Positions 18,803 to 22,309 are shown, counted from the first letter of the stretch. The stretch: DNA of 22,309 bases from a bacterium (GCA_043800755.1 JAZDMQ010000149.1:1-22309), one strand, 5' to 3'. The notes: generated from the letters alone by a model not told the origin. Numbers and translations: made by a program.

Positions 18803-19141
18803 ATGAAAAAGATCGAAGCGATCATTAAACCTTTCAAACTGGACGATGTGAAAAATAGCCTGACTGAGGTCGGGATCCAGGGGATCACCATCAGCGAGGT
18901 CAAGGGATTTGGCCGGCAGAAGGGACACACCGAGCTCTACCGCGGGGCGGAGTACACCATCGATTTCCTTCCCAAGGTAAAGATCGAGATCGTGGTCCCG
19001 GACGAGAAGTGCGAGAAGGTGGTGGAGATCATCCAGGGAGCGGCCAAAACTGGCAGGATCGGCGACGGCAAGATCTTCATCCTCCCCTGCGAAGAGGTAG
19101 TCCGGATTCGCACCGGGGAAAAAGGGGACGATGCGATTTAA
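18803..19141 (+). CDS. glnB: P-II nitrogen regulatory protein (GlnB/GlnK), 112 aa
   Basis: [21 protein letters not shown]-loop ELYRGAEY (Tyr51), [16 protein letters not shown]. No adjacent amtB, so called glnB-like. Confidence 0.95.
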
Positions 19142-19168
19142 ACCCATCCGTCTCACCCCCTTCAGATC

Positions 19169-20728
19169 ATGAAAAAAGGAAAGAAATCTTTGTCAGAAGA
19201 TCGATCCCCAGGAAGGCCAGAGGCGATCATCGCGCTCTCCCGGCTGAGCGAGACCTTATCCTCCCCCGCGGGCGCCCTCTCCCTGGGAAAGAAGGCCCAG
19301 GAGGCCTTGAAGTCTCTCTGTGCCTTCAAAAGGATGGGCCTCCTCTTCCGCACCCCAGGGGGGAGGTGGAAGGAGCTGGAGGCAGGCGGCGCAACCCCCC
19401 AGCAGCGTTCTCCGCTTCCCTCTCCCTTCCTGGAGCGGATGCAGCGGGAGAGGAGGGCTGTGGCCAGGGCCTCCCGGCAGAAGGAGCCCCTCTTCCTCGA
19501 TCCCCAGGCTCCCCTCGGGCCGGAGCAGGAAGGGAGGTTGCAGGAGCTCTGGATCCCCATCCTGGAAAGGGCGGAGTTGCGCGGGCTCTTGTGGCTGGAG
19601 ACACCCTCGCCCCTTGTTCCTCTCTCCGAATTCTGGGCAGGCCTCTCCCTGATGGCTAACCTCATCGGCCAATCCCGTCTGTTAGAGGCAGCCCTGGCGG
19701 CCAGAAGCGAATCGCCCCTTCCCGAGGCCACTGCCCTGGCCCCCGGAAAGTCAGGCCCCGGATTCCCCTCCATCATTGGCAAGAGCGAAAAGATGCACCA
19801 GGTCTTCGAGGCGATCCAGAAGGTCAGTCCCACCCGGGCCAATGTCCTGCTGCGAGGGGAGAGCGGAACGGGAAAGGAATTGGTGGCCCGCGCCATTCAC
19901 CAGTTCAGCCCTCGCGCCGATAAGCCCTTCGTGGTGCTAAACTGCGCCGCCTTACCCGAATCCCTCATCGAAAGCGAGCTCTTCGGGCACGAGAAGGGCT
20001 CCTTCACCGGGGCGGTGGTCAGCCGAGAGGGGCGCTTCGAGCAGGCCGACGGGGGGACCATATTCCTGGATGAGATTGGGGATATCAGCCGTCTGGTTCA
20101 AGTCAAGCTGCTCCGTTTCCTGCAAGAACGGAAGTTCGAAAGGGTGGGAGGGAAGAAGACCTTCTCCGTGGATATCCGCATTATCGCCGCCACCAATCGC
20201 AACTTGGAGGCGGCGGTGGCCGAGGGCCATTTCCGGGAGGACCTTTTCTATCGGCTGAATGTGGTCCCCATCTATCTCCCTCCCTTGCGGGGGCGAAAAG
20301 AGGATATCCCCCCGCTGGTCGGCCACTTCCTCTCTCGTTTCAATGCTGAAAACGGAAAGCGGGTCAAGCTCTCTGCGCCGGCCATGGACCTGATCATGGG
20401 ATACGCCTGGCCCGGGAATGTACGGGAGTTGGAGAACTGTTTGGAGAGGATCGTGGTAATGGCGGAGCGGGAGGTGATCTCTCCCGAGGAGGTCCCCCTG
20501 CCCTATGGACATCTCTCCTCCCTGTCCGGACCCTCCTCATCGGCCCCTCCCCCGCAGGATTCACCTCCCCTCCCCCAATCGCTGGAGGAGTTGGAGAAAA
20601 GAAGGATCGAGGACGCCTTGCGCCGATGTGGCATGGTACAAGCCAGGGCCGCCCGGCTCCTAGGCATCACCCAGAGGCAGATCGGATACAAGATCAAGAA
20701 GCTGGGCATCACCCTCAAGATCTTATAG
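19169..20728 (+). CDS. NifA-like sigma54-dependent enhancer-binding protein (degenerate GAF, AAA+, HTH), 519 aa
   Basis: Walker [24 protein letters not shown], Walker [28 protein letters not shown]. The C-terminal [20 protein letters not shown] closely resembles the NifA HTH (VQAKAARLLGMTPRQ). Confidence 0.92.
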
Positions 20729-20736
20729 CGCATAAT

Positions 20737-20752
20737 TGTACGAACTCTTACA
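20737..20752. promoter_or_regulatory. NifA-type upstream activator sequence TGT-N10-ACA
   Basis: TGT (20737-20739) acgaactctt ACA (20750-20752), overlapping TACA-N4-TGTA (20749-20760); about 120 bp upstream of the -24 element. Confidence 0.75.
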
Positions 20753-20816
20753 TCTTTGTAGCATGGGAGGCCGCGTCCCCTCTGCCGGGTCGAACTCCTT
20801 TCTCGCCCTCCGTTCT

Positions 20817-20844
20817 CATCAACTCCTTATTATTCAATTAGTTA
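20817..20844 (+). promoter_or_regulatory. Candidate IHF site(s) between enhancer and sigma54 promoter
   Basis: cATCAActccTTA (20817-20829) and AtTCAAttagTTA (20832-20844), each one mismatch from WATCAANNNNTTR, within an AT-rich island. Confidence 0.55.
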
Positions 20845-20872
20845 TAGATCTAAAGGCCCGCTCCCGGCACCC

Positions 20873-20888
20873 TGGCATCAATATTGCT
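20873..20888 (+). promoter_or_regulatory. Sigma54 (-24/-12) promoter
   Basis: TGGCAT-CAATA-TTGCT: GG at 20874-20875 and GC at 20886-20887 with exact 10-bp spacing; predicted start site near 20899. Confidence 0.85.
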
Positions 20889-20964
20889 GGAATCCATATA
20901 TGAGGTGACCATCAACGCTTCTCTTGATGCTCCACCGCAATTCAACCCGGGGGAAAGGGCAACC

Positions 20965-22309
20965 ATGGTCAAGATCTCGGCAAAAGAACTCTCAGCCAAA
21001 ACGGAGCCGGCCCGGCGGAGCCGGCCCGGCTACGCCCTGTTCTGGGGGTGTCAGATCCCGGCCCGCCTCCCCTTCCTGGAAAAGGGCATGCGGGCGCTGT
21101 TGCAGGACTTGGGGGTGGTGACCCACGACCTCCCGGGCTTCACCTGCTGCCCGGAGCGCTCCTTCATCGCCAACCTCAATCCTTCTCTCTGGCTCATTAC
21201 GGCTGCCCGAAACCTGGCCCTGATAGAGGCCGAGGAAATGGACCTGCTCACCCCCTGTCCGGGGTGTTATGCCACCTTCCGGGAGGCGATCCATCTCCTT
21301 CGGACCGACCGCGAGGCCAGGAAGAGGATCCAGTCCTCCTTGAAATCGCTGGGGTTAGAGTGGAGAGATCGGATCCGCATCTTACATATTGCCACCCTCA
21401 TCCACGAGGTGCTGGGCCTGGATAAGATCAAAGGCCTGCTGAAATACCGGCTGGAGGACCTTCGGCTGGCGGTTCACTATGGCTGCAATCTCCTCCGCTC
21501 GCAGCAGGCTCATCCCTTCGATCATCCCACGCACCCCCGCAAATTGGATAGCCTGGTGGAGGCCCTGGGCGGGATCTCCCTCGAATATGAGACCAAAGGG
21601 GAATGCTGCGGAGAGTCCCTGGGGCGGACGCAAGGGCCCGGTGAGGCCAAGGCCATGGCCCGGAGAAAGCTCGCGGCGATCCGGACCGCCGAAGCCGATG
21701 GCATCCTGGTCGCCTGTCCGGCTTGTTTCATGCAGTTCGACACCCAGCAGGCCCTGATGGCCCGAGAGGGAGAGAATTATCAGATTCCGGTCCTCTATCT
21801 CACCGAGCTGGTGGGCCTTGGTTTCGACCTCTCTCCGGACTCCCTGGGACTTTCCTTCCATCGCACCCCCGTGGGGCCCTTCCTGGAGAAATGGGAGGCA
21901 AAGAGGGGGGCGGGCTCCTCAGGCGGTCCGCCATTTGACAAAGAGGCCCTGAAGCGCTGCCTCAGTTGCAGCGCCTGTCTCAACGACTGCCCCATTGCCC
22001 TCGCGGAGGAGGATTATCGCCCCAATCTCCTGATCGAGAAATTGCTGGGCGGGGATCTATCTTTTTGCCTGAATCACGAAAAGCTCTGGTCCTGTCTTGA
22101 GTGTCACCGTTGCAGCCAGCTCTGTCCCCAGGGATACAGTTGGGAGAAGACCTTACACCTACTGAAGCAACTGGCCATGCAGGAGGGCCAGGCCCCCTCT
22201 TCCCTGCGAGAGGGCGTGGATCGCTTTCTCAAGACTGGCCGTCTGGTCGAGGCAAGCAGCACCTCGCGCAAGAGGCTGGGCCTCCCCGAAATGGAGCCGG
22301 CCCCTTCGG
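20965..22309 (+). CDS. Heterodisulfide reductase-like HdrB-HdrC fusion protein, 3'-truncated by the window edge (at least 448 aa)
   Basis: Not in the ORF track. Manual translation from ATG 20965 is open to the end. HdrB part: YALFWGCQIP, FTCCP, TAARNLAL, TPCPGCY, AVHYGCNLLR, ECCG, VACPACFMQFD, IPVLYLTEL. Linker GAGSSGGPP. HdrC part: CLSCSACLNDCP (from Cys332) and LWSCLECHRCSQLCP. Confidence 0.9.
   Translation, partial: MVKISAKELSAKTEPARRSRPGYALFWGCQIPARLPFLEKGMRALLQDLGVVTHDLPGFTCCPERSFIANLNPSLWLITAARNLALIEAEEMDLLTPCPGCYATFREAIHLLRTDREARKRIQSSLKSLGLEWRDRIRILHIATLIHEVLGLDKIKGLLKYRLEDLRLAVHYGCNLLRSQQAHPFDHPTHPRKLDSLVEALGGISLEYETKGECCGESLGRTQGPGEAKAMARRKLAAIRTAEADGILVACPACFMQFDTQQALMAREGENYQIPVLYLTELVGLGFDLSPDSLGLSFHRTPVGPFLEKWEAKRGAGSSGGPPFDKEALKRCLSCSACLNDCPIALAEEDYRPNLLIEKLLGGDLSFCLNHEKLWSCLECHRCSQLCPQGYSWEKTLHLLKQLAMQEGQAPSSLREGVDRFLKTGRLVEASSTSRKRLGLPEMEPAPS

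Follow-up and report, generated by a model that had tools for sequence, protein, structure and literature searches.

Why would a bacterium without nitrogenase carry a nif-type regulatory circuit in front of a gene for a heterodisulfide reductase-like protein? The question is raised by the end of a 22,309-nt stretch of DNA (GCA_043800755.1, JAZDMQ010000149.1:1-22309; hereafter the window), which is the entire contig C10 of genome G000 (2.43 Mb, 166 contigs, rated 100% complete). The source organism is a non-diazotrophic NC10 (Methylomirabilota) bacterium. The last 7.4 kb of the window encode, on the + strand, a sensor kinase, a receiver, a P-II protein and a σ54 enhancer-binding protein (EBP), followed by hdrBC, which encodes an HdrB-HdrC fusion and is cut by the contig end. 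A first-pass annotation of this sequence proposed that nitrogen status switches on an Hdr-type redox complex here, perhaps an electron-bifurcating one that supplies a glutamate synthase (GOGAT) encoded past the window edge. The elements that it described are all present at the positions given. Its interpretation is partly supported: the main guess, a GOGAT, holds, whereas bifurcation and the sites for integration host factor (IHF) proved wrong or found no support.

Two things emerge from the analysis. One is a NifA-derived, P-II-linked σ54 switch for ammonium assimilation; the other, and the more interesting, is a split GOGAT with HdrBC as an electron-input subunit. The explanation that best fits the whole, and which we hold to be probable, is a glutamine synthetase (GS)/GOGAT operon run from a σ54 promoter under NifA-like/P-II control, with HdrBC as a fourth synthase subunit and a dithiol as its likely electron donor. 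It builds on the observed gene content and order, the conservation of the regulatory motifs and their rarity in the genome, the absence of nif genes, and the phyletic linkage of hdrBC to split GOGAT genes.

The operon beyond the window edge

Forty relatives from the class were searched for an HdrBC orthologue, the class-level tallies taking in the unpublished genomes G030 and G039. The only one found (75% identical) is in G001, a genome of the same family that is also 100% complete. G001 has the gene order of the window (galT-like, glgA, kinase, receiver, P-II, EBP, hdrBC), and its hdrBC overlaps by 4 bp the next open reading frame (ORF). The genes that follow encode, by Pfam, a class-II glutamine amidotransferase (GATase_2), an FMN-dependent Glu_synthase protein with an N-terminal Fer4 domain, a GXGXG protein, a second P-II and GlnA. 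The same five genes are present in G000 itself on contig C147 (78-94% identity), which picks up the GATase gene only at residue 120, leaving a gap of about 400 bp between C10 and C147. A metagenome contig (L105, 98% identical) carries the whole stretch, including the genes after hdrBC, without interruption. More distant NC10-type contigs (L104, L106/L109, L111/L112, L114) have the same order with EBPs that are 63-97% identical, and the operon order is contiguous in L104 and L112 as well. The guess of a glutamate synthase past the window edge is borne out by G001, L105 and C147.

The operon is predicted to encode a split glutamate synthase, with separate genes for the glutaminase, an FMN/Fe-S synthase subunit with an N-terminal 2×[4Fe-4S] domain, and the GXGXG protein; the cluster cysteines are invariant in 26 synthase subunits. 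Since the copy on C147 is the single Glu_synthase (PF01645) gene in G000, no GOGAT was found in this genome other than that of the operon, which encodes a GS as well. Elsewhere in G000 are amtB, followed by a third P-II gene (contig C118), and a fragment of the glutamate dehydrogenase family.

No match to PF00148 (nifDK) was found in either G000 or G001 (0/2), and the best match to PF00142 (NifH family) in these genomes reaches only 44 bits, in line with the proposal that a nitrogen-related circuit drives an hdr-like gene here rather than nif genes. The first-pass annotation had named hdrA, mvhD, glutamate synthase, glnA, amtB and nif as genes that might lie downstream. Glutamate synthase and glnA are indeed in the operon, amtB lies elsewhere with the same element core (see below), and hdrA, mvhD and nif are not there.

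Linkage of hdrBC to split glutamate synthase

We scanned one genome per species for relatives of HdrBC and examined the best 80 loci of the 347 relatives found. A split-GOGAT gene lies on the same strand as hdrBC at 77 of the 80 loci, all three split-GOGAT genes do so at 62, and at 70 the GATase gene starts within 600 bp downstream of hdrBC. Two of the three loci without linkage end at a contig edge right after hdrBC, and upstream of the third (L029) just 1.3 kb is available. Going by the titles of their records, the hosts belong among others to Clostridia/Peptococcaceae, Nitrospirota, Nitrospinae, Acidobacteriota, and Coriobacteriia and other Actinomycetota. Some Firmicutes have a permuted order, with glt genes upstream of hdrBC, which points to a functional link and not to synteny by common descent. 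Of 11 metagenome loci, nine have hdrBC linked to GOGAT genes, and the remaining two end inside hdrBC. Because the linkage holds in 77 of 80 genomes across phyla, HdrBC is most likely a fourth, electron-input subunit of the synthase.

Within the class, the fusion and the split GOGAT set are found together only in G000 and G001. Among the other 39 class genomes, 34 have a classical large GltB (open frame of ~1060-1585 aa, mostly ~1530-1560 aa) and four have no match. The order P-II, activator, hdrBC, whose conservation in related genomes had been a point of the first-pass annotation, holds in G001 and most NC10-type contigs, but the P-II/EBP cassette accompanies hdrBC at only one of the 80 genome loci, and we therefore read this regulation as a lineage-specific addition. 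The circuit would serve a GS/GOGAT operon, to which the HdrBC fusion contributes one subunit gene, and not the self-contained Hdr-type redox complex first supposed. A complex prediction for the synthase subunit with HdrBC gave a score of 0.00 and no verdict, and is counted neither for nor against this assignment.

The HdrB-HdrC fusion protein

The first gene of the operon, hdrBC, runs on the + strand from 20965 to the contig end at 22309, about 10 codons before its stop. Pfam identifies two CCG domains followed by Fer4_8, in agreement with the hdrB-hdrC fusion that had been read after the promoter. Compared with solved chains, the N-terminal ~290 residues of the window ORF correspond to full-length HdrB (E 8.6e-58) and the C-terminal part to HdrC (E 1.7e-11). 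The full length in relatives is 458 aa, within a family of ~440-460 aa proteins that share 40-46% identity. In 21 sequences the cysteines of the HdrB CCG motifs (29, 61, 62, 98, 101, 174, 214, 215, 251, 254) and of the two HdrC CX2CX2CX3C motifs (332, 335, 338, 342, 377, 380, 383, 387) are invariant.

HdrBC stays under the NCBIfam equivalog cut-offs for both halves (TIGR03288, 243 vs 345; TIGR03290, 48.6 vs 160), and the model NF042965 for the SdhE membrane anchor matches it less well than TIGR03288 does, with 122 bits. Its neighbours are glt genes, no hdrA lies in the operon, and the setting is not the methanogen type of a CoB-CoM heterodisulfide reductase. The gene-caller start of a 97%-identical protein (P0003) is a GTG equivalent to position 20905, giving a 20-residue N-terminal extension that is absent from other homologues and not conserved; the ATG at 20965, preceded by a purine-rich stretch, fits the alignment better.

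The activator, its putative enhancer and the σ54 promoter

The P-II gene (18803..19141, + strand; 112 aa, Pfam P-II E 1.2e-34) encodes a protein with the T-loop Tyr51 that scores 174 bits against NCBIfam PRK10858, under the cut-off of 202 for this E. coli-type equivalog. A glnD gene is present in G000 (708.7 bits, over its cut-off), as is rpoN (contig C134, 202 bits). After a gap of 27 bp follows the EBP gene (19169..20728, + strand, stop TAG at 20726-20728; Sigma54_activat E 5.5e-75, HTH_8 E 6.8e-13), so that the reading of a P-II gene and, 27 bp on, an EBP with a NifA-like helix-turn-helix (HTH) holds. In the EBP a degenerate, faintly GAF-like N-terminus (~residues 1-200) precedes an AAA+ domain and a Fis-type HTH (~residues 470-519); a receiver domain is absent. 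Its best match among 26 NCBIfam models is TIGR01817 (nifA; 468.5 bits over residues 22-517, ~94 bits over the next model), below the equivalog cut-off of 528.85 bits. Judged by its sequence it is best called NifA-like, resembling NifA in site type and, as far as the faint GAF region can be recognised, in architecture, and departing from it in score and in the lack of nif targets.

Three P-II paralogues are encoded in G000: the regulator-linked copy in the window (C10), one between gltB3 and glnA (C147 3032-3394, 70% identical to that of the window) and one linked to amtB (C118 5815-6156).

A composite upstream activator element, TGTA-N8-TACA-N4-TGTA, lies at 20737..20760 (no strand assigned). 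It contains the TGT-N10-ACA site that the first-pass annotation had noted 8 bp past the EBP stop (20737-20752, 136 bp before the promoter TGG) and, at 20749-20760, the palindrome TACATCTTTGTA. The −24/−12 promoter, TGGCATCAATATTGCT, occupies 20873..20888 on the + strand and reads TGGCAT-CAATA-TTGCT, a perfect match to the σ54 consensus (GG at 20874-5, GC at 20886-7). By the usual −12 spacing, transcription is predicted to start near 20898-20900.

In the whole of G000 there are five perfect TGGCAY-N5-TTGCW sites, 90 TGT-N10-ACA sites and four copies of TACA-N4-TGTA. Only the window's site, out of 82 σ54-like sites with at most one mismatch, has TGT-N10-ACA 40-250 bp upstream; as ~0.6 such coincidences are expected by chance, this is weak evidence and not significant by itself. 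We aligned the 330 bp 5′ of hdrBC from G000, G001 and nine metagenome contigs (11 regions, ~7 distinct lineages). Enhancer and promoter are the only conserved blocks, present in 11 of 11 regions and always 125-136 bp apart, while the surrounding sequence is not kept and the distance of the enhancer from the EBP stop varies from 8 bp in G000 to ~258 bp in G001. Weak as the coincidence is in a single genome, this conservation makes enhancer and promoter more than chance, and by the same measure both are predicted to be functional.

The TACA-N4-TGTA part of the element recurs at a second operon. Of the four copies in G000, one precedes the perfect σ54 promoter of hdrBC and two that of amtB-glnK (C118 ~4285 and ~4429), at distances of 77-221 bp, so that two of the five perfect promoters account for three copies; in G001 three of five copies are at hdrBC and amtB. 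In G017, which belongs to another family of the class, the three-half-site element recurs behind genes for a receiver, a P-II and the orthologous EBP, where it overlaps the EBP stop codon; a σ54 promoter lies 156 bp beyond it, ahead of amtB. The description of the enhancer as nifH-type is therefore right in that TGT-N10-ACA is present and conserved, and incomplete in that the element has three half-sites and the core common to the hdrBC and amtB promoters is TACA-N4-TGTA, not TGT-N10-ACA.

The IHF-like sites did not survive as evidence. Two matches with one mismatch to the IHF consensus (20817..20829 and 20832..20844, + strand) lie in the spacer between enhancer and promoter and are doubtful: such matches occur at chance level in the window (5 vs 5.9 expected) and are not conserved in the 11 orthologous regions. 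Three genes of the HU/IHF family are present in G000. A simple scan between EBP and hdrBC found no σ70-like promoter or +-strand terminator, which is uninformative.

A TGT-N9-TACAT match is also found ~770 bp upstream of the glnD match of G000 (C62 ~7165; L117). It is not the TACA-N4-TGTA palindrome, and no σ54 site with at most one mismatch was flagged there.

Candidate electron donors

Genes related to lipoate accompany hdrBC at 12 loci, mostly in Firmicutes. Eleven of these (L025, L027, L030, L032, L034, L035, L037, L041, L047, L085, L092) encode a lipoamide-dehydrogenase-type protein (E3) of 458 aa with Pyr_redox_2 and Pyr_redox_dim domains. A free-standing lipoyl domain of ~76 aa is encoded directly 5′ of hdrBC at nine of these 11 loci and none was detected at L025 and L047. 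LipA is encoded at three of the lipoate-linked loci, two of which also encode LplA, and L029 has a radical-SAM-lipoyl fusion in front of hdrBC instead of E3. This linkage suggests a dithiol donor for HdrBC-GOGAT. The lipoyl-dependent Hdr-like arrangement is seen at the 12 loci and not in the window's lineage; for NC10 we infer the dithiol donor by homology, and ferredoxin or a quinol must be taken seriously as donor there too.

Proposed mechanism and alternative explanations

We propose that the window ends in the first gene of an operon hdrBC, gltB1 (glutaminase), gltB2 (FMN/Fe-S synthase), gltB3 (GXGXG), glnB2, glnA. The adjacent NifA-like activator would bind TGTA-N8-TACA-N4-TGTA ~135 bp upstream of the −24/−12 promoter and remodel the σ54 holoenzyme. 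The P-II protein from the preceding gene would make the activity of this activator depend on nitrogen status; as GlnD is present, P-II is probably uridylylated. The upstream kinase and receiver pair may contribute another signal. Expression of amtB-glnK is probably driven by this regulator too: with the TACA-N4-TGTA core shared by the hdrBC and amtB promoters in G000 and G001, and the whole element found at amtB in G017, the predicted regulon comprises GS/GOGAT and AmtB-GlnK. Rather than acting alone as a heterodisulfide reductase, the HdrBC fusion would serve the split glutamate synthase as its dedicated fourth subunit. Electrons would travel by way of the two [4Fe-4S] clusters of its HdrC part into the synthase subunit, to the ferredoxin domain with its two [4Fe-4S] clusters and the FMN; a protein dithiol, oxidised at the non-cubane clusters of HdrB, is their most likely source. 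A candidate donor taken from other lineages is a dihydrolipoyl carrier recharged by a lipoamide-dehydrogenase-type enzyme.

A further claim is put forward tentatively and is, in our estimate, rather less likely to be right than wrong: that the system represents a new class of glutamate synthase, whose reducing power enters via a protein-bound dithiol and which in NC10 stands under a NifA-derived, P-II-controlled σ54 switch in the role of NtrC. Its electron path would run from NAD(P)H through E3, the small lipoyl carrier (or another dithiol where this is absent), the HdrB non-cubane clusters, the HdrC [4Fe-4S] clusters and the Fe-S clusters of the synthase to FMN and 2-iminoglutarate. If this is true, a heterodisulfide reductase module is run in the dithiol-oxidising direction for biosynthesis. 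On the estimate used here for the potential of the GOGAT acceptor couple, lipoamide at −0.29 V is an adequate donor.

Several observations weigh against the proposed mechanism. NC10 operons encode neither E3 nor a lipoyl carrier, and the same holds for those of Nitrospirota and Actinomycetota; the free lipoyl protein of Firmicute type was not found in G000, where the best match is a domain within a ~407-aa frame, and the E3-like homologue of G000 lies on contig C16 among unrelated neighbours. HdrBC could be a GOGAT subunit with a donor other than a dithiol, its CCG clusters serving, as in SdhE/GlpC-type proteins, simply as Fe-S wiring or as a site for quinol, and receiving electrons from ferredoxin or menaquinol. 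The weaker match to the SdhE model and the ferredoxin-like domain already present in the synthase subunit are compatible with such a donor, which we regard as unlikely though worth serious attention. The invariance of the ten cysteines of both CCG motifs speaks against it, as do the closest relatives by sequence, which are disulfide-reducing HdrB chains (E 1e-58; TIGR03288, 243 bits), and the 12 loci that tie the gene to E3, lipoyl or lipoate-assembly genes. Menaquinol, moreover, is roughly isoenergetic with the GOGAT acceptor couple and would be a poor driver. That HdrBC has a function of its own, for instance in thiol/disulfide homeostasis under nitrogen limitation, and is merely co-transcribed with GOGAT, we consider very unlikely. 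It would accord with the absence of any fused HdrBC-GOGAT protein at E ≤ 1e-20 among longer proteins, which is weak evidence, and with the homologue of the FMN subunit in G017 (63% identical), which sits in a different cluster without hdrBC; the complex with GOGAT, for its part, is deduced from linkage. Such co-transcription would hardly give linkage at 77 of 80 loci in distant phyla, in varying order and both up- and downstream of the glt genes, nor an orthologue that within the class is confined to the two genomes with a split GOGAT.

The regulatory half of the mechanism meets objections of its own. Two of the nine NC10-type metagenome loci keep enhancer and promoter with no EBP gene in the 1.3 kb (L107) and 0.77 kb (L108) available upstream, at least seven EBP-like matches occur in G000, and the spacing of TACA-N4-TGTA differs from that of classical NifA sites. 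The amtB promoters of G000 and G001 are without a perfect TGT-N10-ACA, so that either TGT-N10-ACA or TACA-N4-TGTA may be the recognition unit, and the GAF domain of the EBP is barely recognisable (GAF_2 at only E 0.097), the 63%-identical orthologue in G017 giving GAF at E 2.7e-7. The promoter might be served by another activator, such as an NtrC-type EBP encoded elsewhere, with the adjacent EBP regulating other genes and the element binding another protein. We think this distinctly unlikely: the EBP gene lies directly upstream in seven of nine NC10-type metagenome loci and in G001, the orthologous EBP of G017 is again followed by the same composite element although its target there is amtB, and an element with a NifA-type TGT-N10-ACA sits beside an EBP that is closest to NifA. 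RNA-library contigs from two runs of one study cover the receiver, P-II and EBP genes, the intergenic region and hdrBC at 95-100% identity, one of them spanning enhancer and promoter (20607-20933) and one continuing 986 nt past the window end, while a third run gave short pieces only; these contigs provide no start, strand, level or nitrogen dependence of transcription, and DNA carry-over is possible. The nitrogen-controlled, electron-bifurcating HdrABC-type complex of the first-pass annotation, a supplier of low-potential reductant, is hardly credible. The HdrB and HdrC homologies are genuine, and G000 has other Hdr-like genes on contigs C93, C27 and C138. Bifurcation, however, requires a flavin site, and no gene for HdrA, MvhD, NfnB, a GltD-like protein or any other flavoprotein partner is found in the operon at any NC10-type locus or in G001, which leaves the idea without support; nor does GOGAT need a reductant below the level of NAD(P)H.

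Comparison with known systems

P-II control of NifA and nifH-type promoters with NifA, TGT-N10-ACA and σ54 are familiar from the diazotrophs Azospirillum, Herbaspirillum and Rhodospirillum. The window's activator shares with NifA the AAA+ domain, Fis-type HTH and lack of a receiver, probably also a GAF-like N-terminus, has NifA as its best model and an adjacent P-II gene, and its TGT-N10-ACA site ~135 bp upstream of −24/−12 falls within the NifA-type range of 80-150 bp. Unlike the nif systems it occurs without nitrogenase, scores below the NifA cut-off and has predicted targets (GS/GOGAT and amtB) that form an NtrC-like regulon; the enhancer has a third half-site and the shared core TACA-N4-TGTA, and the EBP sequence lacks the Cys-rich interdomain linker of NifA. 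The enterobacterial NtrB-NtrC-GlnB system controls glnA and amtB-glnK. It is alike in this regulon, here a predicted one, in σ54, in P-II as signal transmitter and in the presence of GlnD, whereas here the activator is receiver-less, a lone receiver and the kinase each have a gene of their own, the site motif is another, and GOGAT is part of the glnA operon.

The synthase resembles the archaeal type, in which, as excerpts of one report describe, the domains of glutamate synthase are separate ORFs (PMC8097209). For the split GOGAT of methanogens, excerpts of two papers propose F420 dependence, with an FrhB-like 'subunit 4' as the electron-input module (PMC3087415, PMC9012536). Common to these systems and ours are separate GATase, FMN/Fe-S and GXGXG polypeptides and a proposed fourth, exchangeable electron-input subunit encoded beside them, and on this FrhB-like precedent we read the HdrBC fusion as the bacterial counterpart of subunit 4. 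It differs from the F420-dependent form in having HdrB-HdrC in place of FrhB, a module that cannot take F420, and in its bacterial hosts from many phyla.

With the methanogen HdrABC-MvhAGD complex (PDB 5ODC, 8RVU) the fusion shares a full-length HdrB with both CCG motifs and an HdrC with two [4Fe-4S] motifs. The fused B-C order, the lack of HdrA in the operon, the scores below the equivalog cut-offs and the genomic partnership with GOGAT set it apart, and since the NC10 organism is not a methanogen, CoM-S-S-CoB is not an expected substrate. A closer parallel for the donor is the sHdr-LbpA system, in which, according to excerpts of PMC6067878, a lipoyl protein works with an Hdr-like complex, lipoamide being quoted at E0′ −0.29 V, and is tied genetically to lipoate-assembly genes and, in archaea, to dihydrolipoamide dehydrogenase. 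As far as those excerpts describe it, it is alike in the linkage of an Hdr-like Fe-S module to lipoyl carrier, lipoate-assembly and E3 genes, which we see at the 12 loci and not in NC10. Our carrier, in contrast, is of the E2 type (Biotin_lipoyl, ~76 aa) and not GcvH-like as LbpA is, no sulfur transferases are present, and with GOGAT as partner electrons would flow from dithiol to biosynthesis.

Significance

To our knowledge, the electron donor of the bacterial split 'archaeal-type' glutamate synthases is not established. With HdrBC as a conserved partner, the entry of electrons gets a definite explanation open to experiment, to which the lipoyl carrier and E3 of some lineages add a candidate donor, and by linkage a comparable four-gene set is present in many anaerobic and sediment lineages. 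If the assignment is true, the use of the HdrB non-cubane cluster extends beyond methanogenesis and sulfur oxidation. Routine annotation labels these genes "CoB-CoM heterodisulfide reductase" in non-methanogens, a name in need of correction that can mislead metabolic reconstructions from metagenome-assembled genomes. On the regulatory side, a receiver-less NifA-like activator with P-II would control general ammonium assimilation in a bacterium without nitrogenase, through a small predicted regulon of two operons. A literature search covering neither subscription journals nor supplements, so that a prior description may exist, found no paper tying an HdrBC-like protein to glutamate synthase and none on a NifA-like regulator of GS/GOGAT in NC10.

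Other genes of the cassette and the window

The conserved regulatory cassette opens with the sensor histidine kinase (14921..18394, + strand), to which Pfam assigns 4HB_MCP-like, PAS, three GAF, HisKA and HATPase domains. The kinase gene also lies 5′ of the response regulator, P-II and EBP genes in G001 and in metagenome loci L105, L106/L109, L112 and L114. The start of the receiver-only response regulator (18395..18754, + strand; 119 aa, Response_reg E 4.2e-27) abuts the kinase stop, and a response regulator beside P-II is likewise seen in metagenome loci and in G017. The kinase orthologue of G001 (L022 4023-7660) is split into three overlapping ORFs (4023-5126, 4759-5586, 5378-7660), the last of which has no HATPase Pfam match; frameshifts or assembly errors may be the cause.

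The FMN-subunit homologue of G017 is encoded on contig C46 (L146, 2-3762) in a cluster with QueH, a 147-aa ferredoxin and a Pyr_redox_2 protein, with no amidotransferase, GXGXG or hdrBC gene beside it. Given this company of ferredoxin and Pyr_redox_2 protein, the FMN module can use other partners, and the cluster appears to be another electron-input solution for it.

On the − strand, the window carries at 365-3487 an ORF with a RidA/L-PSP domain, a Fer4-CCG-CCG protein (751-2082) and a GlcD-like FAD oxidase (2057-3487), a cluster that looks like the glycolate or D-lactate oxidase type. The Fer4-CCG-CCG protein is a second, unrelated CCG protein on the contig, with a GlcF/HdrD-like domain order opposite to that of the HdrBC fusion. 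At 5246-7935, also on the − strand, is a 2-oxoacid:ferredoxin oxidoreductase-like pair, a 683-aa POR_N/TPP_enzyme_C/Fer4 fusion and a POR gamma-domain protein, which near a nitrogen-assimilation locus could be a source of reduced ferredoxin or of 2-oxoglutarate chemistry. A DUF5981 protein ('MTHFR C-terminal') adjoins a 242-aa ORF with no Pfam match at 7815-9269 (− strand). A DUF5981 and MTHFR pair also directly follows the HdrBC-GOGAT genes at the Nitrospinae locus L026 (11885-13440), a recurrence that may be due to chance.

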